Positions 55,761 to 64,000 are shown, counted from the first letter of the stretch. The stretch is DNA of 64,000 nucleotides from Betaproteobacteria bacterium (GCA_039931685.1 JBDTRK010000003.1:5990-69989), one strand, 5' to 3'. Program-made: numbers and translations. Notes: a model not told the origin generated them from the letters alone.

Positions 55761-56825
55761 ATGCTGACAAGAACAAACATTGGTCTGACGATAGAACAGG
55801 ACGAGCTGAAGGGGTTTTCCAGAACCATAGCCGAAATCGAGTGGCTGCTCCTTGGACTGGTCCTGATTTATCTGCTGGCCGGCGCCCCGCCGGAAGAAGG
55901 CAGAACCGCCATCCACGCCGCGCTATTCTTCTTCGCGGCGTTCATTCTCGGCCTGCATTACGTGCATTTCTACCGGCTCGAAAACCGCACCAAGCTGATG
56001 TTCGAAAGCTGGGTGATGATTGTGTTCATCACCTGGGTGATCTGGTTCACCGGACAGATCAACAGCCCGCTGCTCAACCTTTATCTGCTGCCGATCATCG
56101 CCAGCGCATTGATCTTCGGCAAACTGCCGACGGCCTTGAAGGTGGGCACCATCATCGCCTGCATCATGTTCTTCGCATATAGCCCCAAATCGAAAACGCT
56201 GCTGTCGCTGCCGTTCTGGGGTGAATTGCTGGCGATTTCCGCCCCCATGATTCTGGTGGCCTATATAACCACCATGCTCGCCGCGGACATCCGTTATGCG
56301 GTGGACAAGATCAAACAGGTGTCCGATACCGACGAACTCACCGGCATCTACAACATGCGCGCCTTTTCGTCGACGCTACAGCGCGCTTTCCGACAGTCCG
56401 TGCGCTACGGCCACGCGTTGTCGGTGGTGATGATCGACTCCGACAACCTGAAGCAGATCAACGATGCGCACGGCCACGACTCCGGCAACAGGCTGCTCCA
56501 GCACCTGGTGCGGTGCGTGCGCGAGCAATTGCGCGGCTCGGACGTCATGGCGCGCTTTGGCGGTGACGAGTTCATCGTGCTGCTGCCGGAGACCAACAAC
56601 AAAGGCGCGCTGGAAATGGCAGAGCGCATTCGCAAGGCCGTCGAACTATCACGCCTCGACATGCGCACCGGCGATGCCAGCATCACCGTCAGCCTCGGCG
56701 TGGCGAGCTATCCAGAGGATGGCGGCAATCTCGAAGTCATCCTGGAAAAAGCCGACAAGGCCATGTACCGCGCCAAGCAGCGCGGCCGCAACTGCGTCAT
56801 TGCCTATAACGACGACGCTGCCTGA
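55761..56825 (+). CDS. membrane-anchored diguanylate cyclase (GGDEF)
   Basis: About five N-terminal TM helices, then DELTGIYNMRAF...RFGGDEFIVLLPE. Confidence 0.85.
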   Translation: MLTRTNIGLTIEQDELKGFSRTIAEIEWLLLGLVLIYLLAGAPPEEGRTAIHAALFFFAAFILGLHYVHFYRLENRTKLMFESWVMIVFITWVIWFTGQINSPLLNLYLLPIIASALIFGKLPTALKVGTIIACIMFFAYSPKSKTLLSLPFWGELLAISAPMILVAYITTMLAADIRYAVDKIKQVSDTDELTGIYNMRAFSSTLQRAFRQSVRYGHALSVVMIDSDNLKQINDAHGHDSGNRLLQHLVRCVREQLRGSDVMARFGGDEFIVLLPETNNKGALEMAERIRKAVELSRLDMRTGDASITVSLGVASYPEDGGNLEVILEKADKAMYRAKQRGRNCVIAYNDDAA

Positions 56826-57646
56826 GCGGGCGCGGCACCGCCATGGCGGCCGGGCCGAAAGTAATCGGTGTCATCGTAGAAATTTTCCTGGTTACCCGCG
56901 CTCCACCAGCCCGGCACGCCCAGTACCGGCAGCGGCGACAACTCCCGGCCCTGCCTCATGTGCGCGCGGTTCCAGACGTGGGCGGCGAGCAGTCGATCCG
57001 CATCGGCAACCTGCGCCTGCTGCGGCAGGCGCGCAAATCCATCCGGCACACACAGCAAGACGGCCTTGCCGGTCATGCCGACGAAGGGGTCCAGCGCCTT
57101 GTGGTACAGCGCATGGCCGAACAGGAAAAAGCGCATTTTCTGCCTGACCTCCTCGCGCCGCCTCCAGAACAACTCCTTCCAGCGAAACGTGCGTAGCAGG
57201 TCCAGCAATGCGGCGTCGCTGGACAGCACTACTACGCCGTCTTCGTCGAACAAGGTGAGCGCATCGCGCACCGGCGGCCGGTTGCCCGCCTGCGTCCCGG
57301 CCAGCGATTCGTAATGCCGCGCATTGATCACTGCCTTGGTGGTCGGAAAGGACATCCACACCAGGGCATTGAACAAGTCGTGCCAGTCCAGCGCACGCAT
57401 TTGCACTTCGCCGGCCAGAAAGGTGCGCTGCTCGAAGCCGTCCCGGAATTCGCCGGACCGGGGCGACTGCACAACGAAGCGAACCGGCAAACCCTGGGCA
57501 TTGACCACCCTGCCGGCATCGCCGGCGAGCGCATTGAGCACGTCAGGATCGGGCCAGCCGATCTGCGGCAGGCGGGCGCCGACCGCACGTAGCGGCGCGA
57601 ACATGTCGGAGCGATGCAGCCAGTCGGTATTCCAATAATCGGCCAT
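56804..57646 (-). CDS. DUF3025 domain-containing protein
   Basis: FAPLRAVG...WHDLFNALVWMSFPTTKAVINARH is the DUF3025 pattern (from memory). Confidence 0.7.
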   Translation of the reverse strand: MADYWNTDWLHRSDMFAPLRAVGARLPQIGWPDPDVLNALAGDAGRVVNAQGLPVRFVVQSPRSGEFRDGFEQRTFLAGEVQMRALDWHDLFNALVWMSFPTTKAVINARHYESLAGTQAGNRPPVRDALTLFDEDGVVVLSSDAALLDLLRTFRWKELFWRRREEVRQKMRFFLFGHALYHKALDPFVGMTGKAVLLCVPDGFARLPQQAQVADADRLLAAHVWNRAHMRQGRELSPLPVLGVPGWWSAGNQENFYDDTDYFRPGRHGGAAPAQAASSL

Positions 57647-57711
57647 GCGGGCGCGCGAACGCGATCAGGTAACATGCGATTGTCTCAGTATAGCCAGCCG
57701 GAAAACGTATC

Positions 57712-58848
57712 GTGACCGAACAAGTGGACTGCGCCGTCATCGGCGCCGGCGTCGTCGGACTCGCCATTGCCCGCGAGCTCGCCATGGCCGGGCGCGAGGT
57801 CATCGTGCTGGAAGCCGCCGACGCCATCGGCACGCATACCAGTTCGCGTAACTCCGAAGTCATCCACGCCGGGCTGTACTATCCGAAGGGTTCGCTCAAG
57901 GCCCGTCTTTGCGTCTCCGGAAAAACACTGCTCTATGATTACTGCGCGGGGCACGGCGTGCCCCACAACAACATCGGCAAAATCGTAGTGGCGGTAACCC
58001 AGGACGAAATCACCACGCTGAAAAGCTACGTGCAAAAGGCCGAGGGGAACGGCGTTCACGACCTGCGCTGGCTCGCGCGCGCAGAGCTGCGTGAACTGGA
58101 GCCGGCGGTCGAATGCGTCACCGGCTTTCTGTCGCCCTCCACCGGCATCGTCGATAGCCACGCGCTCATGCTCGCCTATCAGGGAGACGCGGAAAACAGC
58201 GGCGCATCCGTTGTCTTCAAGAGTCCGGTCGATTCCGGAGAAATCGGCGCGGAAGGCATCCTGCTGAAGGTCGGCGGGGACGAACCCATGTCCATCTTCT
58301 GCCGGAGTGTCGTCAATTCGGCCGGCCTGTTCGCGCAGAACGTTGCGCGTTCGTTCGCCGGTCTGCCGGCGCAAAGCATTCCCCCGCAGTATTTCGCCAA
58401 GGCGCATTACTACACCCTGTCGGGCAAGCCGCCGTTCAGGCGGCTGGTCTATCCGGTGGCAAGCAATGCCCACCTCGGCGTGCACGTGACGGTGGACATG
58501 GCGGGCCAGATCCGCTTCGGACCGGATGTCTGCTGGGTCGATGCAGTGGATTACGCCTTCGATCACTCGCGCGAGCCGCTGTTCTACGCGGCAATCCGCC
58601 AATACTATCCCGGACTCAGGGACGGCCAACTGCAGCCCGGCTACACCGGCATTCGCCCCAAGGTCTCCGCGCCACAGGAAGCGGCGGCGGATTTCATCAT
58701 CAGCGGTCCGCGCCATCATGGGGTCGGCGGCCTGGTGAATCTGTTTGGCATCGAATCGCCCGGGCTGACCGCGTCCTTGGCGATCGCCGCCCACGTAAAG
58801 GCCTTGCTGCAAGGCCGGACCGTCAACGACTCGCCGAGTGGCGCATGA
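57712..58848 (+). CDS. FAD-dependent oxidoreductase (LhgO/DAO-like)
   Basis: CAVIGAGVVGLAIARELA dinucleotide motif and SSRNSEVIHAGLYYP. GTG start. Confidence 0.8.
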   Translation: MTEQVDCAVIGAGVVGLAIARELAMAGREVIVLEAADAIGTHTSSRNSEVIHAGLYYPKGSLKARLCVSGKTLLYDYCAGHGVPHNNIGKIVVAVTQDEITTLKSYVQKAEGNGVHDLRWLARAELRELEPAVECVTGFLSPSTGIVDSHALMLAYQGDAENSGASVVFKSPVDSGEIGAEGILLKVGGDEPMSIFCRSVVNSAGLFAQNVARSFAGLPAQSIPPQYFAKAHYYTLSGKPPFRRLVYPVASNAHLGVHVTVDMAGQIRFGPDVCWVDAVDYAFDHSREPLFYAAIRQYYPGLRDGQLQPGYTGIRPKVSAPQEAAADFIISGPRHHGVGGLVNLFGIESPGLTASLAIAAHVKALLQGRTVNDSPSGA

Positions 58849-60152
58849 CGACGATGGACCAGCTGGAGCACGTCGAAAAAGCCAGCGTCGACGAGTTGCG
58901 CAAGCTGCAGCTCGACCGACTGCGCTGGAGCCTGAAGCACGCCTACGAAAACGTGCCGCACTACCGTCAGAGCTTCGCTGCCGCCGGAGTCCATCCCGGC
59001 GACCTGCAAGAGCTTTCCGACTTGGCGAAATTCCCGTTCACCACGAAGACCGAGTTGCGCGAGAACTACCCGTTTGGGCTGTTCGCCGTGCCGATGAAAG
59101 ACATTGTGCGGGTGCATGCCTCCAGCGGCACGACCGGCAAGCCCACGGTCGTCGGATACACCAAACAAGACATCGAAATGTGGGCGGGCGTAATGGCCCG
59201 CTCATTGCGCGCGGCCGGCGCGCGATCGAGCGACGTCGTGCATATCGCGTACGGCTACGGCCTGTTCACCGGCGGGTTGGGCGCGCACTATGGCGCCGAA
59301 GCGCTCGGCGCCACCGTGATTCCCTCGGGAGGCGGCATGACCGAACGCCAGGTCAGGCTCATCTGCGACTTCAAGCCCGATATCATCATGTGCACGCCGT
59401 CCTATCTGCTAGTGATTGCCGACGAATTCGTGCGCCAGGGCCTCGACCCGGCAAAGTCGTCGCCGCGCATAGGCATCTTCGGCGCCGAGCCGTGGTCGGA
59501 AAGCATGCAGGCCGAGCTCGAGCGGCGCTTCGGCATCGCCGCGCTCGACCTGTACGGACTTTCCGAAGTGATCGGCCCGGGCGTGGCCGCCGAGTGCATC
59601 GAAACCCGCGACGGACTCACCATCTGGGAAGACCATTTCTATCCGGAGATCATCGATCCGCAGACCGGCGCAGTCCTGCCGGACGGGGAAAGCGGCGAAC
59701 TCGTGCTTACCTCGCTGACCAAGGTCGGCATGCCGGTCGTGCGTTACCGCACGCGCGACCTCACGCGATTGCTGCCCGGCACTGCGCGCACGATGCGGCG
59801 CATGGCGCGCGTCACCGGCCGCAGCGACGACATGCTGATCATTCGCGGCGTCAACGTGTTTCCGTCGCAGATCGAGGAAATCATCGTGCAGCAGCCGGCG
59901 CTCTCCCCGCACTATGTCCTGGAAGTGCGCCGTGACGGCCACATGGATGAACTCGACGTCCTGGTCGAACGCCGCCCGGACATTCCCGGACCACTTGCCG
60001 CCGCCGCCCGCCAAAGTGCCGAACAGGAAGTGGCCCGCCAGATCAAGGGCCTGATTGGCGTGACCACGACCGTGAAAGTGGTCGAACCCGATACCCTGCA
60101 ACGATCCCAGGGCAAGGCGGTGCGGGTCATCGACAAACGACCGAAGAATTGA
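58845..60152 (+). CDS. paaK: phenylacetate-CoA ligase
   Basis: Near-colinear with E. coli PaaK (ASVDELRKLQLDRLRWSLKHAYENVPHYR, HASSGTTGKPTVVGYT, RYRTRDLTRLLPGTARTMRRM, RSDDMLIIRGVNVFPSQ). Confidence 0.9.
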   Translation: MTTMDQLEHVEKASVDELRKLQLDRLRWSLKHAYENVPHYRQSFAAAGVHPGDLQELSDLAKFPFTTKTELRENYPFGLFAVPMKDIVRVHASSGTTGKPTVVGYTKQDIEMWAGVMARSLRAAGARSSDVVHIAYGYGLFTGGLGAHYGAEALGATVIPSGGGMTERQVRLICDFKPDIIMCTPSYLLVIADEFVRQGLDPAKSSPRIGIFGAEPWSESMQAELERRFGIAALDLYGLSEVIGPGVAAECIETRDGLTIWEDHFYPEIIDPQTGAVLPDGESGELVLTSLTKVGMPVVRYRTRDLTRLLPGTARTMRRMARVTGRSDDMLIIRGVNVFPSQIEEIIVQQPALSPHYVLEVRRDGHMDELDVLVERRPDIPGPLAAAARQSAEQEVARQIKGLIGVTTTVKVVEPDTLQRSQGKAVRVIDKRPKN

Positions 60153-60164
60153 GAGGAGCGCAAC

Positions 60165-61574
60165 GTGCCGACACATGCCGATAACGCCGACGAACCCCGC
60201 GCCCTGCAAAGTGCCGGCCTGACCCGGGAAGCCATTACCGCCTGGCAATCTTCAGCGCCGCCGGACCGCGGCGACTTTTCCGGAGACTGCGCGCGTTATA
60301 CGCATTATTGGGATAAAGCAACGGCCCTGCTGGCGAAACTCCCGGCCAAGGCGGCACGCAACGCGCAACAGACCGAAGCGGCGGAATATATAAAACGTGC
60401 CACACGCGCGTCGCGCACGCGCTTCCTGTCCGCCCACGCCGGCGCGGTATACGACCGGCTCACCCGCAACCGGACCCGCTTCGTGCGTATCGAACAGCTG
60501 GTCTACGACGCGGCCATACTCCTTCCCGGCCTCACGCCGGCGCAGGCGGTGGTCGACGCCGAACTGGCCCTCATGCAGCGCGACAAGGAGGGCCACGAAA
60601 TCGACCAGGGCATTTTTATCTCCAGCGTGCTTGCCGACGCTCGTGCGGGAACGCATCTGTGCCACGCCATGCTGCTGCCTCGCGCCGAAGCCGTGGCGCG
60701 CCTTCCCGAATACGAGAAGACCGGCCATCTCGACCTCGGCGCAGCGGAAATAACCCGCCGCGGCAAGTCATCCTGCGTCTTGCAGAAAAACCCGCGCCAC
60801 CTGAATGCGGAGGACGACACCACCATCGACGCCGCCGAGATCGCGGTGGACATTGCGATCCTGGACGCACAAACCCAGATCGGCGTACTGCGCGGGGATT
60901 ACGTGCAAGGCGGCAAATACGACGGCCGGCGCATGCTCGGCAGCGGCATCAACCTGACGCACCTGTACCACGGCAAGATTCCCTTCATCTGGTATTTGCA
61001 ACGCGACCTGGGCATCGTCAACAAATTCTTCCGCGGCGTGGCGCGCGAAGACATGACACCGGATGATTTCAACGGGCAAACCATCGAAAAACCGTGGATC
61101 GCCGTGGTCGAACAATTCGCCATTGGCGGCCACTGCCAGTACCTGCTGACCATGGACTACGTGCTGGCCGCGCGCGGCGCTTTCCTGAGCCTGCCGGCGC
61201 GCAAGGAAGGCATCATTCCGGGTGCGGCCAACATGCGCCTGCCGCGCTTCACCGGCGAGCGCATCGCCCGGCAGGCGATCATGTACGAGCGCCGGCTGGA
61301 CTGCGACAGCCCGGAAGGGCGCATGATCTGCGACGAAATCGTCGAGCCGGAGCAGATGGATGGGGCGATCGAACGCGTGGTGGAAAACCTGACCGGCTCG
61401 GGCGTCGTCAGCGCCGCCGCGAACCGCCGCGCCTTTCGCGTCACCCAGGAACCGCTGGATTTGTTTCGCCGCTATTTCGCCACCTACGCGCTGGACCAGG
61501 CTTACTGCCATTTCAGCCCTGCGCTGATTTCCAATCTCGAGCGCCACTGGAACGCCAAGAGCCGAAAGTTGTGA
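60165..61574 (+). CDS. crotonase-superfamily protein, DpgC-like (cofactor-independent acyl-CoA dioxygenase-like)
   Basis: 469 aa with a long helical N-domain. The motifs NPRHLNAEDD, GSGINLTHLYHG, KPWIAVVEQFAIGG and LPARKEGIIPGAANMRLPRF are as I recall for DpgC. GTG start. Confidence 0.65.
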   Translation: MPTHADNADEPRALQSAGLTREAITAWQSSAPPDRGDFSGDCARYTHYWDKATALLAKLPAKAARNAQQTEAAEYIKRATRASRTRFLSAHAGAVYDRLTRNRTRFVRIEQLVYDAAILLPGLTPAQAVVDAELALMQRDKEGHEIDQGIFISSVLADARAGTHLCHAMLLPRAEAVARLPEYEKTGHLDLGAAEITRRGKSSCVLQKNPRHLNAEDDTTIDAAEIAVDIAILDAQTQIGVLRGDYVQGGKYDGRRMLGSGINLTHLYHGKIPFIWYLQRDLGIVNKFFRGVAREDMTPDDFNGQTIEKPWIAVVEQFAIGGHCQYLLTMDYVLAARGAFLSLPARKEGIIPGAANMRLPRFTGERIARQAIMYERRLDCDSPEGRMICDEIVEPEQMDGAIERVVENLTGSGVVSAAANRRAFRVTQEPLDLFRRYFATYALDQAYCHFSPALISNLERHWNAKSRKL

Positions 61575-61776: not shown

Positions 61777-61902
61777 ATGACCAGCATCATTCTGCTCGTC
61801 GGGCCACTCACCGTGATCATCGGATGCCTCTACTGGGTGATGTCGCTCGGCAAGGAGCAGGCAGCCCTCAACGCGGAACTCTGGCCCAAGCTGCGCAAGT
61901 AA
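61777..61902 (+). CDS. 41-aa hydrophobic peptide
   Basis: AGGAG lies 8 nt upstream. One TM helix (MTSIILLVGPLTVIIGCLYWVM). Followed by a strong terminator. Confidence 0.4.
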   Translation: MTSIILLVGPLTVIIGCLYWVMSLGKEQAALNAELWPKLRK

Positions 61903-61927
61903 GCCGAGCCCGCCGTTGCAAAAGAAA

Positions 61928-61955
61928 AGCCCCGGATTCCCGGGGCTTTTTGTTT
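61928..61955. terminator. bidirectional rho-independent terminator
   Basis: Hairpin agccccgg-attc-ccggggct is flanked by aaaagaaa on the 5' side and tttttgtttg on the 3' side. It lies between convergent genes. Confidence 0.65.
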
Positions 61956-62011: not shown

Positions 62012-64000
62012 CTATGCGGCCTTCGCCTGATTCATCGCCCGCCAGACCTTTTCCGGCGTGGCCGGCATTTCGATCTGCTTCACACCAAGGTGGCGCAGAG
62101 CGTCGATGACTGCATTCATCACCGTGGGCGTGCCGCCGACCGTGCCAAGTTCACCGACGCCTTTCGCCCCGAGCGGATTGATCTTGCACGGCGTCGTCTC
62201 GTCGGTATTGGTGTCGAAACTCGGCAAGTCGTCGGCGCGCGGCAGACAGTAATCCTGCAGCGATCCGGTGATGAGCTGCCCGGTCTCGGGATCGTAATGC
62301 GTGTTCTCGAGCAAAGCCTGGCCGACCGCCTGGGCGATGCCGCCATGCACCTGGCCGGCGACGATCAGCGGGTTGATGACGCGGCCCACGTCGTCGACGG
62401 TGGTGTAGCGCACGATGCGGGTGACGCCGGTGTCCGGATCGATCTCCACTTCGCATACATGGCAGCTGTTCGGCCACGACGGTCCGTCGACTTTCTGCAG
62501 GGTCGTGATGGCAATGCGCTTTTCCGGTTGCTTCGCCGCCAGTTCGAACAAGCCGATCCCCAGATCAGTTCCCGCCACCTGGAATCGGCCATCACGGTAC
62601 TCGATGTCCTGTCCCGCCGCCTCCAGCGCATCGCCGGCGAGTTCGCGGCCTTTCTCGATGGTCTGTTTCGAAGCGGTCAGCATCGCCGAGCCGCCGATGT
62701 ACAGCGAACGGCTGCCCATGCTGCCAATGCCCTGGGCGACATCGGTGTCGCCCTGCACGATGACGATCTTGTCGGGATCGATGTCCAGCGTCTCCGACAG
62801 GATCTGCACATAGCTGGTCTCGATGCCCTGCCCCATTGCCTGCATGGCGGTGTAAACCAGCACCCGGCCGTCGGCTTCGACGTGCAGGTTGACCGTCTCT
62901 TCATGCACCACACCGGTCCATTCCAGGAAGGTCGACAAGGCGCGCCCGCGCAGCCTGCCGCGCTTGCGCGATTCTTCGCGACGCGTCGCATAGCCCTTCC
63001 AATCCGCCTTGTCGAGGATGCGCTCGAGCATGTGCGGGAAATTACCGCTGTCGAACTTCTCGCCCATCGGCGTCTTGTATGGCATCTGCGCAGGCTGGAT
63101 GAAATTGCGCCGGCGCAATTCCGCCGGGTCCATCTTCATTTCGGCAGCGGCCTGGTCCATCAGCCGCTCCACCAGGTAGATCGCTTCGGGCCGGCCCGCA
63201 CCGCGATAGGCGCCGACCATGTTGGTGTTGGTCATCACCGCCGTGCCGCGCAGGTGCAGCGCCGGCACGTGATAGACGCCGGTTATGACCTTGGGGCCGA
63301 CCGCGACCACGATCACGGCGCCCGGGCCGCTGGCATGCGCACCGATGTTGCCGATGATGTCGACGCGAAATCCGAGGATCTTGCCGTCGGCATCGAAGGC
63401 GAGCTCGGCGTGGTTGATCTGATCGCGGCCGTGGTTGCCGCCGAGGAATTCCTCGCTGCGGCTCGCGCGCCAGTGCACCGGGCGCTTCAATTTGCGCGCG
63501 CCCCAGGCGCACACCACGTCCTCGGCATACAACTGCGTCTTCATGCCGAAACCGCCGCCGACATCGCCGACGATGACGCGCACATCCTTCATCGGCACCT
63601 TCAGGCAGGATTCCGCCAGTGTCTTCTGCAACCCGGCCGGATTCTGGCAGCTGGTACGCAGGGTGAAGCGGCCGCTGACGGCATCGAACTCGGCGATGCT
63701 GCCGCGCGGCTCCATGCTGACCGGAACCAGGCGCTGGTTGTATAGCGACAGTTTGGTAACGTGGCTGGCCTTGGCGAAGGCGGCGTCGCACAAGTCCTTC
63801 TTGCCGAATTCGGTCTGCGCGGCGATGTTGCCGGGTGCATCCGGCCACAGCAGGGGCGCGCCTTTGGCGGTGGCAGCTTCGATGGTGACGACCGCTGGCA
63901 GGTCCTGGTAATCGACCATCACCTGCTCAGCGGCATCCTCAGCCTGGATTCGGGTTGCCGCGAAGACCGCCGCCACTGGCTCGCCGACATAGCGCGCCGT
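62012..64000 (-). CDS. xanthine dehydrogenase/CoxL-family molybdopterin-binding large subunit (5' end outside window)
   Basis: GGGFGMK, GAYRGAGRPE and GQGIETSY...GSMGSRS motifs of molybdo-hydroxylase large subunits. The ORF is open to the window edge. Confidence 0.85.
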   Translation of the reverse strand, partial: TARYVGEPVAAVFAATRIQAEDAAEQVMVDYQDLPAVVTIEAATAKGAPLLWPDAPGNIAAQTEFGKKDLCDAAFAKASHVTKLSLYNQRLVPVSMEPRGSIAEFDAVSGRFTLRTSCQNPAGLQKTLAESCLKVPMKDVRVIVGDVGGGFGMKTQLYAEDVVCAWGARKLKRPVHWRASRSEEFLGGNHGRDQINHAELAFDADGKILGFRVDIIGNIGAHASGPGAVIVVAVGPKVITGVYHVPALHLRGTAVMTNTNMVGAYRGAGRPEAIYLVERLMDQAAAEMKMDPAELRRRNFIQPAQMPYKTPMGEKFDSGNFPHMLERILDKADWKGYATRREESRKRGRLRGRALSTFLEWTGVVHEETVNLHVEADGRVLVYTAMQAMGQGIETSYVQILSETLDIDPDKIVIVQGDTDVAQGIGSMGSRSLYIGGSAMLTASKQTIEKGRELAGDALEAAGQDIEYRDGRFQVAGTDLGIGLFELAAKQPEKRIAITTLQKVDGPSWPNSCHVCEVEIDPDTGVTRIVRYTTVDDVGRVINPLIVAGQVHGGIAQAVGQALLENTHYDPETGQLITGSLQDYCLPRADDLPSFDTNTDETTPCKINPLGAKGVGELGTVGGTPTVMNAVIDALRHLGVKQIEMPATPEKVWRAMNQAKAA

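Follow-up and report, generated by a model that had tools for sequence, protein, structure and literature searches.

A PaaK and DpgC-like gene cassette, and a putative oxygen-dependent side-chain route for phenylacetate

Phenylacetate is a central hub in the breakdown of phenylalanine, styrene, lignin-derived compounds and many pollutants, for which textbooks list one aerobic and one anaerobic route. In the aerobic (paa) pathway, the CoA ligase PaaK is followed by the PaaABCDE ring 1,2-epoxidase, PaaG and PaaZ; in the anaerobic route of Thauera/Aromatoleum, the ligase PadJ is followed by the molybdenum enzyme PadBCD (phenylacetyl-CoA:acceptor oxidoreductase) and by the phenylglyoxylate oxidoreductase PadEFGHI, with phenylacetyl-CoA, phenylglyoxylate and benzoyl-CoA as intermediates. 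A quite different chemistry is provided by DpgC, the (3,5-dihydroxyphenyl)acetyl-CoA 1,2-dioxygenase of glycopeptide-antibiotic producers (PDB 2NP9, 4YLH, 2PG8, 5KAG/H/J), a cofactor-free enzyme of the crotonase fold that converts its thioester to the arylglyoxylate plus free CoA. All characterised members of this family are biosynthetic. In a further biosynthetic setting, the L-phenylglycine operon pglA-E of Streptomyces pristinaespiralis is proposed to oxidise phenylacetyl-CoA at the α-carbon and to release phenylglyoxylate (PMC7089894).

Here we examine a 64,000-nucleotide stretch of a Betaproteobacteria genome (GCA_039931685.1, JBDTRK010000003.1:5990-69989; hereafter ‘the window’), in which a paaK gene directly precedes a full-length relative of dpgC. 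We found no paper describing this pairing. A preliminary description had proposed that these two genes, together with an upstream gene for a FAD-dependent oxidoreductase, form an O2-dependent route from arylacetate to arylglyoxylate (or a 2-hydroxy/2-oxo-acid), distinct from both known phenylacetate pathways.

Gene content and protein identities

The three genes are real and lie where the preliminary description had placed them (Table 1), and its observation is confirmed. The ATGA overlap between the FAD gene and paaK is present in the sequence (gcgcATGAcg), and a 12-nt spacer separates the paaK stop from the GTG start of the third gene, with GAGGAG lying 6 nt before that start. The sequence motifs that had been associated with DpgC are all found in the translation.

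Table 1. Features of the cassette and its surroundings, in window coordinates
Position	Strand	Feature	Length	Placement
56804-57646	-	DUF3025 gene, divergent partner of the FAD gene		backbone
57712-58848	+	LhgO/L2HGDH-like FAD oxidoreductase	378 aa	backbone; probably on the same transcript as the cassette but not part of the module
58845-60152	+	paaK, phenylacetate-CoA ligase	435 aa	first gene of the cassette
60165-61574	+	dpgC-like gene, two-domain crotonase-fold protein, predicted cofactor-free arylacetyl-CoA 1,2-dioxygenase	469 aa	second gene of the cassette
61777-61902	+	conserved hydrophobic ORF with its own SD, followed by a GC hairpin and T-run near 61925-61955	41 aa	backbone
62012-64000	-	molybdopterin-binding large subunit of a xanthine-oxidase-family oxidoreductase, convergent, cut by the window end		backbone

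The ligase scores 700.9 bits against TIGR02155 (curated cut-off 646.3) and carries the Pfam AMP-binding and AMP-binding_C_2 domains; it is the only PaaK in the genome to reach the cut-off. It is 61-69% identical to PaaKs that sit beside paaA in related genomes and nests among paa-operon PaaKs on short branches, with the cassette clade sister to the paa-operon PaaK of genome G209 (97% SH-aLRT; G and L denote individual genomes and loci in the comparison sets), such that it is an ordinary PaaK both by score and by tree position.

The third protein matches NF042432 (DpgC) at 422.6 bits, covering profile positions 3-407 of 412, and PDB 2NP9 at E 2e-100 over query residues 35-455, with 43% identity. 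An AlphaFold2 model (pLDDT 93.6), searched with Foldseek, aligns with 2NP9/4YLH over about 420 columns at TM 0.85 (query) and 0.94 (target), with an rmsd of 2.2-2.4 Å, whereas ordinary crotonases align over only about 260-290 columns at TM 0.42-0.48. Clustering with ordinary enoyl-CoA hydratases and absence of the DpgC N-domain had been named beforehand as grounds for rejecting the assignment; the protein is, however, a true two-domain DpgC-family member (helical N-domain plus crotonase core). Saying this, its score is below the curated cut-off of 530 bits, whilst representatives of the true DpgC clade score 576 and 534, and a split with 100% SH-aLRT support places it not among the glycopeptide-type DpgCs but in their sister superclade, so that equal chemistry is an extrapolation.

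The equivalents of Glu189, Ile235, Leu237, Arg254, Gly296, Gln299 and Ala319 are invariant in both the true-DpgC clade and the query clade, which share 51 invariant positions. In the query, Glu189, Arg254, Gln299, the oxyanion-hole residues Ile235 and Gly296, and Ala319 of the O2 pocket correspond to E216, R280, Q325, I262, G322 and A345, and the second O2-pocket residue, Val425, becomes Leu454, a conservative change; R254, A319 and V425 are amongst the residues mutated in DpgC studies (R254K, A319C and V425T in the titles of PDB entries). Clade-specific changes nevertheless sit next to catalytic elements: Gly297 to His323 (replacing a Gly invariant in true DpgCs, directly after the oxyanion-hole glycine), Ala320 to Arg346, Glu to Asp281, an invariant Cys324, and Lys428 to Asn457.

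These changes, the sub-threshold score and the position in the non-DpgC superclade, where gene contexts elsewhere are heterogeneous (TauD, MbtH and type III PKS), leave room for a different crotonase-superfamily reaction on the PaaK product, such as hydrolysis, hydration, isomerisation or decarboxylation of a CoA ester, with no arylglyoxylate made. We consider this unlikely given the full-length structural match and the shared invariant positions; moreover, a ligase followed by a mere thioesterase would be a futile cycle.

The FAD protein matches PF01266 at E 3e-59 but reaches only 207.2 bits against the LhgO profile NF008726 (cut-off 299), matching profile positions 2-268 of 389, and its best structural match is 3DME, a protein of unknown function (E 1e-141). 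The DUF3025 gene matches PF11227 at E 4e-74. The convergent molybdenum enzyme contains MoCoBD_1 and MoCoBD_2, and its best NCBIfam hit, glyceraldehyde dehydrogenase alpha, is at 522 bits, below the cut-off of 790.

Linkage and genomic distribution

The adjacency of paaK and the dpgC-like gene is far more than chance, with PaaK lying directly upstream in 28 of 32 related loci from public genomes, including an Acidobacteriota contig. The adjacent PaaKs form one clade (98% SH-aLRT) that includes the Acidobacteriota pair. In genome G010, a DpgC-like gene that nests inside the window’s genus clade sits beside paaG and a PaaK of a different lineage, which is an independent re-association. A 47%-identical relative sits between a ThDP enzyme and a classical acyl-CoA ligase, with TctC and UbiD genes nearby. 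The linkage is not universal, however: in one family (f14) the DpgC-like gene is not next to PaaK, lying 31 kb away in genome G013.

The functional unit is two genes rather than three. The orthologue of the FAD gene is present in 100 of 301 genomes of the order, against 16 with the DpgC-like gene and mostly without that gene, and it keeps its divergent DUF3025 partner in many genomes that lack the cassette. The 41-aa ORF, 68-88% identical in more than 20 related loci, directly follows the FAD gene in cassette-less genomes (loci L073, L082 and L086), and does the same in L033/L074, whilst in G202 and G285 the molybdenum enzyme follows the FAD gene directly. The FAD gene is on another contig in G013 and G010, DpgC-like genomes of other families, is missing from the pairs at L044, L045, L047 and L042, and in L033/G299 is separated from paaK by a 2.7-kb stretch. 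The pair is therefore an insert in a conserved backbone (DUF3025, FAD, 41-aa peptide, Mo enzyme), placed between the unrelated FAD-oxidoreductase gene and the gene for the small membrane peptide. The three-gene version, in which the FAD protein would oxidise a 2-hydroxy acid such as mandelate to the glyoxylate, or act on the product, draws on the ATGA overlap, on the FAD-paaK-dpgC-like order in 22 close relatives and in G159, and on the 2-hydroxyacid-oxidising LhgO/L2HGDH family to which the protein belongs, but on this evidence we regard it as very unlikely.

Of the 301 genomes, 81 carry a PaaK-level ligase; of these, 50 have PaaA, 16 have the DpgC-like gene, none has both and 15 have neither. 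PaaC, likewise, was not found in any of the 16 DpgC-like genomes. The two are complementary within families: in f14, six of seven genomes are DpgC-like-positive and PaaA-negative and the seventh is the reverse, and in family f4, G159 and G003 show the same contrast. BoxB is in 16 of 16 DpgC-like genomes, against 73 of 301 overall. It should be said that the 16 genomes come from only four families, so the counts are not independent, and that all genomes are uncultured MAGs.

The absence of paaABCDE noted in the preliminary description holds for the whole of the window’s genome, which is 98.6% complete: profile searches gave a best PaaA score of 84.6 bits (cut-off 280), no PaaC, and a best PaaZ score of 114.7 (cut-off 562.8). 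One correction to that description is needed with respect to paaG, as a PaaG-level isomerase is encoded elsewhere in the genome, at C34 (394.5 bits against 345). The genome does have BoxB (756.8 bits against 499), BoxC (800.3 against 712) and a benzoate-CoA ligase family protein (833.3 against 375), as well as a gentisate 1,2-dioxygenase (545.9 against 442).

We also considered a biosynthetic role, in which the pair would make phenylglyoxylate as a precursor of phenylglycine or another secondary metabolite, as in Dpg/Hpg/Phg biosynthesis and in keeping with the biosynthetic nature of all characterised family members and with the proposal for S. pristinaespiralis. The true DpgC locus L097 has DpgA/B/D, an aminotransferase, MbtH and an NRPS; in contrast, no aminotransferase, NRPS, MbtH or PKS was found in the window neighbourhood, where the neighbours are housekeeping backbone genes, and no type III PKS (Chal_sti_synt) was found in the genome. 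Along with the complementarity with catabolic PaaA and the co-occurrence with Box, this points to catabolism and makes a biosynthetic role very unlikely.

A proposed model and its relation to described systems

Synthesising these findings, we propose, with moderate confidence, that the pair is a catabolic cassette. In this view, PaaK activates phenylacetate, or a very similar arylacetate, to the CoA thioester; the DpgC-like enzyme would then stabilise the thioester enolate in its oxyanion hole, add O2 at the α-carbon, and release the arylglyoxylate (phenylglyoxylate) plus free CoA, as DpgC does with 3,5-dihydroxyphenylacetyl-CoA. Given the lack of PaaABCDE and PaaZ and the presence of benzoate-CoA ligase and BoxB/BoxC, we suggest that phenylglyoxylate is most likely converted to benzoyl-CoA, directly or through benzaldehyde and benzoate, and degraded by the aerobic benzoyl-CoA (Box) pathway, although no enzyme for the phenylglyoxylate step was identified and the two candidates examined are not specific to DpgC-like genomes. 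What our analysis establishes is the identity of the genes, the fold (from the model), the conservation of active-site residues, the linkage and the genomic distribution, whereas the substrate, the cofactor-free oxygenation chemistry and every step after the glyoxylate are inferred. The interpretation offered in the preliminary description is thus partly supported: a separate O2-dependent route from arylacetate to arylglyoxylate is the best reading, but the FAD oxidoreductase is not supported as a member of it.

It also remains possible, if less likely, that the same chemistry serves a different substrate, such as 3-hydroxy-, 3,5-dihydroxy-, 3,4-dihydroxy- or 4-hydroxyphenylacetate from plant phenolics, or indoleacetate, with the arylglyoxylate feeding a hydroxybenzoate/gentisate-type route rather than the Box pathway. 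Arg254 and Glu189 of DpgC reportedly contact a phenolic hydroxyl, and plain phenylacetyl-CoA is reported to be a poor DpgC substrate (Fielding et al. 2007), such that conservation of these residues could mean a hydroxylated substrate. Clade-specific His323, Arg346 and Tyr441 would add polar groups near the active-site loops, the genome has the gentisate dioxygenase noted above, and a sister-lineage cluster carries a UbiD-family hydroxyarylic-acid-type decarboxylase. Against this, the ligase passes the curated phenylacetate-CoA ligase cut-off and nests among paa-operon PaaKs, the strict complementarity is with PaaA, the phenylacetyl-CoA-specific epoxidase, and Arg254, Glu189 and Gln299 are invariant across the entire family, so they may be general catalytic rather than specificity residues.

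More tentatively still, we speculate that this represents a third route of bacterial phenylacetate catabolism, in which a mobile two-gene cassette would functionally replace the PaaABCDE/PaaZ ring-epoxide pathway in several lineages of soil Burkholderiales, and in at least one Acidobacteriota genome, and feed the Box pathway; it would be the first catabolic role for the DpgC family. If this reading is right, a cofactor-free dioxygenase known only from antibiotic biosynthesis has been recruited for catabolism, giving an aerobic side-chain route that explains the orphan PaaK genes in genomes without the epoxidase. It would also supply a simple two-enzyme, cofactor-free way to make arylglyoxylates, which are precursors of phenylglycines and mandelates, from arylacetates.

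With respect to described systems, the DpgC-like protein shares with DpgC its two-domain fold, oxyanion-hole motifs and studied active-site residues, but differs in its clade and clade-specific substitutions (His323, Cys324, Arg346 and Asn457), in a thioester supplied by a PaaK ligase rather than by the DpgA/B/D polyketide machinery, in the lack of an aminotransferase or NRPS, in a proteobacterial rather than actinobacterial host, and in its predicted catabolic role. In the pgl operon, which is biosynthetic, phenylacetyl-CoA comes from phenylpyruvate through PglB/C, a separate thioesterase (PglD) is needed, and an aminotransferase follows. The paa pathway has the same first step and an orthologous PaaK, and a PaaG-level isomerase is present here too, but the predicted attack is on the side-chain α-carbon and not on the ring. 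Finally, the predicted intermediates are those of the anaerobic route, to which this would be an oxygen-dependent counterpart: no PadEFGHI-type enzyme specific to these genomes was identified, and the α-oxidation would use O2 and a cofactor-free crotonase-fold enzyme rather than a membrane molybdoenzyme, with the aerobic Box pathway as the sink.

Gene order and the extent of the unit

The three open reading frames reported in the preliminary description are present exactly as it placed them, and its observation is confirmed (coordinates for these, and for the other features discussed, are collected in the table below). The TGA of the FAD oxidoreductase gene overlaps the ATG of paaK (ATGA), whilst a 12-nt spacer containing GAGGAG separates paaK from the third gene. 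In profile searches, the first protein is a DAO-family flavoprotein, closest to L-2-hydroxyglutarate oxidase but below the cut-off for that family (207 against 299 bits), with the uncharacterised structural-genomics entry 3DME as its closest structure; the second passes the curated PaaK cut-off (700.9 against 646.3 bits); and the third matches the DpgC model end to end (profile positions 3-407 of 412) at 422.6 bits, but under the equivalog cut-off of 530 bits. The third protein also matches the solved DpgC structure at E 2e-100, over residues 35-455.

Coordinates of the features discussed in the text
Feature	Location	Strand	Length or remark
FAD oxidoreductase gene	57712-58848		378 aa, GTG start
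paaK	58845-60152		435 aa
dpgC-like gene	60165-61574		469 aa, GTG start
Small hydrophobic ORF	61777-61902	+	41 aa, AGGAG SD
Hairpin and T-run	near 61925-61955		
Divergent DUF3025/FAD oxidoreductase gene pair	56804-58848; loci L073-L092		
PaaA-like di-iron protein, SDR and gentisate 1,2-dioxygenase row	G000:C5:10888-14535 (L003)		di-iron protein 241 aa
dpgC-like, paaG, paaK	about 5728-9302 in L042 (L042/L065, G010:C135)		
Inserted ORF in one genus member	L033 4597-6483 and G299:C1 (L074)		628 aa
Two BoxB-level genes, first f14 genome	G013:C2:23797-26629		
Two BoxB-level genes, second f14 genome	G122:C31:16491-20622		

Absence of the DpgC N-terminal domain had been set out beforehand as an observation that would count against the assignment. 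An AlphaFold model of the third protein (pLDDT 93.6), however, superposes on DpgC structures at TM 0.85/0.94, with an rmsd of about 2.3 A over about 420 columns, whereas ordinary crotonases cover only the C-terminal 260-290 columns; the N-domain is not lacking, and this is a genuine two-domain member of the DpgC family.

To establish which genes belong together, we mapped the proteins of the window (C3:5990-69989 of a 3.66-Mb, 98.6%-complete MAG of uncultured soil Burkholderiales) onto 32 related public loci. PaaK lies directly upstream of the DpgC-like gene in 28 of these, one of which is a 617-kb Acidobacteriota contig. The FAD gene behaves differently: its orthologue is present in 100 of 301 sampled genomes of the order, against 16 with the DpgC-like gene, and it keeps a divergent DUF3025 partner in many genomes that have no cassette (loci L073, L076-L080 and L082-L092). 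The DUF3025/FAD pair is a widespread two-gene unit, conserved across about a third of the order. In two genomes (G202 and G285) it is followed directly by the convergent Mo-enzyme gene that lies downstream of the cassette in the window, and in DpgC-like genomes of other families (G013 and G010) it lies on a different contig.

The small ORF that comes after the DpgC-like gene in the window is conserved at 68-88% identity, with an invariant IGCLYWVMSLGKEQ core, in more than 20 related loci; in cassette-less genomes (loci L073, L082 and L086), and also in L033/L074, it follows the FAD gene directly. In the genus member represented by L033 and L074, an ORF with weak von Willebrand/cobaltochelatase-like similarity is inserted between the small ORF and paaK, separating the FAD gene from the cassette by 2.7 kb. 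The ‘backbone’ is therefore DUF3025, FAD, 41-aa ORF and Mo enzyme, with the paaK-dpgC-like pair as a two-gene insert between the FAD gene and the small ORF. Because of the ATGA overlap, the insert is probably read from the transcript of the FAD gene, but nothing else ties the flavoprotein to it. Inclusion of the FAD oxidoreductase in the pathway, as the preliminary description had suggested, is thus not supported and was rejected, and there is likewise no support for the adjacent Mo enzyme as a pathway member (for example, as a benzaldehyde oxidase), as this is a backbone neighbour that is also present without the cassette. A scan for consensus promoters and terminators gave nothing above shuffled sequences. 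An apparent 1090-aa ‘fusion’ ORF at one locus (L062) had no Pfam hit and was a wrong-frame artefact, and the contigs of several representatives were too short to be informative.

Linkage and genomic distribution of paaK and the dpgC-like gene

The PaaKs adjacent to DpgC-like genes form one well-supported clade (98% SH-aLRT) that includes the Acidobacteriota copy, so the pair has moved as a unit; this clade nests among the PaaKs of ordinary paa operons, to which the PaaK of the window is 61-69% identical. In G010 the DpgC-like gene nests inside the genus clade of the window, but lies in an operon-like order of dpgC-like, paaG (394.8 bits, over the cut-off) and paaK, flanked by formate-tetrahydrofolate ligase and the helicase YoaA, and next to a PaaK of a different lineage; this is a second, independent association. 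PaaG-PaaK pairs without PaaA also occur in two further genomes (G072 and G290). In two MAGs (loci L044 and L045) the paaK-dpgC-like pair is found outside the FAD backbone, directly after an acetyl-CoA acetyltransferase and next to a complete leucine-catabolic set (methylcrotonyl-CoA carboxylase subunits, hydratase and HMG-CoA lyase).

More distant relatives add to the pattern. A 62%-identical relative has a PaaK-like ligase (624 bits) 1.7 kb away, whilst a 47%-identical relative, on metagenome contigs (L100/L101), sits in a catabolic-looking cluster between a ThDP enzyme (PRK07586 family, with weak similarity to benzoylformate decarboxylase) and a classical acyl-CoA ligase, with several TctC binding proteins, a UbiD-family decarboxylase and an amidase. 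In family f14, by contrast, the two genes are not adjacent, and are 31 kb apart in G013.

The genome carrying the window has only this one cut-off-level PaaK, and profile searches of it found no PaaA, PaaC, PaaZ or type III PKS. The best PaaA hit (84.6 bits, far below the cut-off) is not PaaA but a small di-iron protein on contig C5, in a row with an SDR and a gentisate 1,2-dioxygenase (546 bits); the same weak hit recurs in all genus members, and it may be a CoA-ester hydroxylase of a gentisate route. The genome does encode BoxB (756.8 bits), BoxC (800.3 bits) and a benzoate-CoA ligase family protein (833.3 bits). In two f14 genomes, two BoxB-level genes lie close together, scoring about 900 and about 758 bits, which suggests duplicated or divergent benzoyl-CoA oxygenase systems.

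Across the 301-genome sample of the order, 81 genomes carry a PaaK-level ligase; of these, 50 are PaaA-positive, 16 are DpgC-like-positive, none has both and 15 have neither. BoxB is present in 73 genomes overall, and in all 16 DpgC-like genomes, with fourteen over the cut-off and two cut by contig ends. These positives come from only four families, so the counts are not independent events; G010 is only 81% complete, and one unpublished genome (G294) is among the PaaA-, BoxB-, PaaK- and FAD-positive tallies, although no conclusion depends on it. The complementarity also holds within families: in f14, six of seven genomes are DpgC-like-positive and PaaA-negative, and the seventh (G209) is the reverse, with G159 and G003 showing the same contrast in family f4. 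A PaaG-level isomerase is present in 12 of the 16, and the copy in the genome carrying the window, on contig C34, has no pathway context. PaaG also isomerises 3,4-dehydroadipyl-CoA, which the Box pathway also produces, and its presence therefore does not imply the epoxide route.

Family placement and active site

A tree of 65 full-length representatives splits, with 100% SH-aLRT, into two groups. One holds the true DpgCs (representatives at 576 and 534 bits), one of which sits in a DpgD/DpgA/DpgB/DpgC/aminotransferase/MbtH/NRPS locus; the second superclade holds the query, and here the contexts are mixed, being ligase-linked, type III PKS, TauD and MbtH. Residue numbers were mapped from the alignment to the solved DpgC (chain index = residue number + 2), with Val425 and Arg254 falling on the residues named in the PDB titles, which checks the mapping; the roles of the residues, and the activity of DpgC on phenylacetyl-CoA, are taken as reportedly described for DpgC (Widboom 2007; Fielding 2007; Chen 2001).

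The equivalents of Glu189, Ile235, Leu237, Arg254, Gly296, Gln299 and Ala319 are invariant in both clades, among 51 shared invariant positions. The query clade differs consistently in five ways: His323 replaces the Gly that follows the oxyanion-hole glycine, Cys324 is invariant, Arg346 replaces Ala320, Asp281 replaces the Glu after Arg254, and Asn457 replaces Lys428. The catalytic scaffold is kept whilst the pocket or entrance is remodelled, which fits the same chemistry on a different arylacetyl-CoA, but does not distinguish phenylacetyl-CoA from a hydroxylated analogue.

Proposed route and comparison with known systems

Synthesising these findings, we propose that PaaK converts phenylacetate to phenylacetyl-CoA, and that the DpgC-like enzyme then enolises the thioester in its oxyanion hole, adds O2 at C-alpha and collapses the peroxide with thioester cleavage, to give phenylglyoxylate and CoA; phenylglyoxylate would in turn be converted to benzoyl-CoA or benzoate and enter the Box pathway. 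Of this, the identity of the ligase is shown by the analysis, but its substrate is inferred from orthology, the oxygenation is inferred from DpgC, and the final step is inferred from distribution only. The interpretation in the preliminary description is partly supported, in that it holds for the ligase-dioxygenase pair but not for the flavoprotein.

Two candidates for the phenylglyoxylate-consuming enzyme were considered, neither of which is specific to cassette genomes. The only ThDP enzyme that is neither ALS nor IolD (PRK08199 family, C52) is in 23 of 23 genomes, including all 7 DpgC-like-negative controls, and the KorA-like 2-oxoacid:ferredoxin oxidoreductase (C20) is in 15 of 16 positives and 4 of 7 controls; no benzoylformate decarboxylase equivalog was seen among the ThDP enzymes.

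Full-text searches found no paper connecting DpgC-type enzymes with PaaK or with phenylacetate catabolism. The enzyme is predicted to work like DpgC but departs from the DpgC equivalog in score, clade and context, whilst the ligase is an ordinary PaaK. Streptomyces pristinaespiralis is proposed to oxidise phenylacetyl-CoA towards phenylglyoxylate for phenylglycine biosynthesis (PMC7089894), but that is a biosynthetic operon with a separate thioesterase. The route suggested here would share intermediates with the anaerobic PadBCD/PadEFGHI pathway, and its first step with the paa pathway, but would differ from both at the key oxidation.
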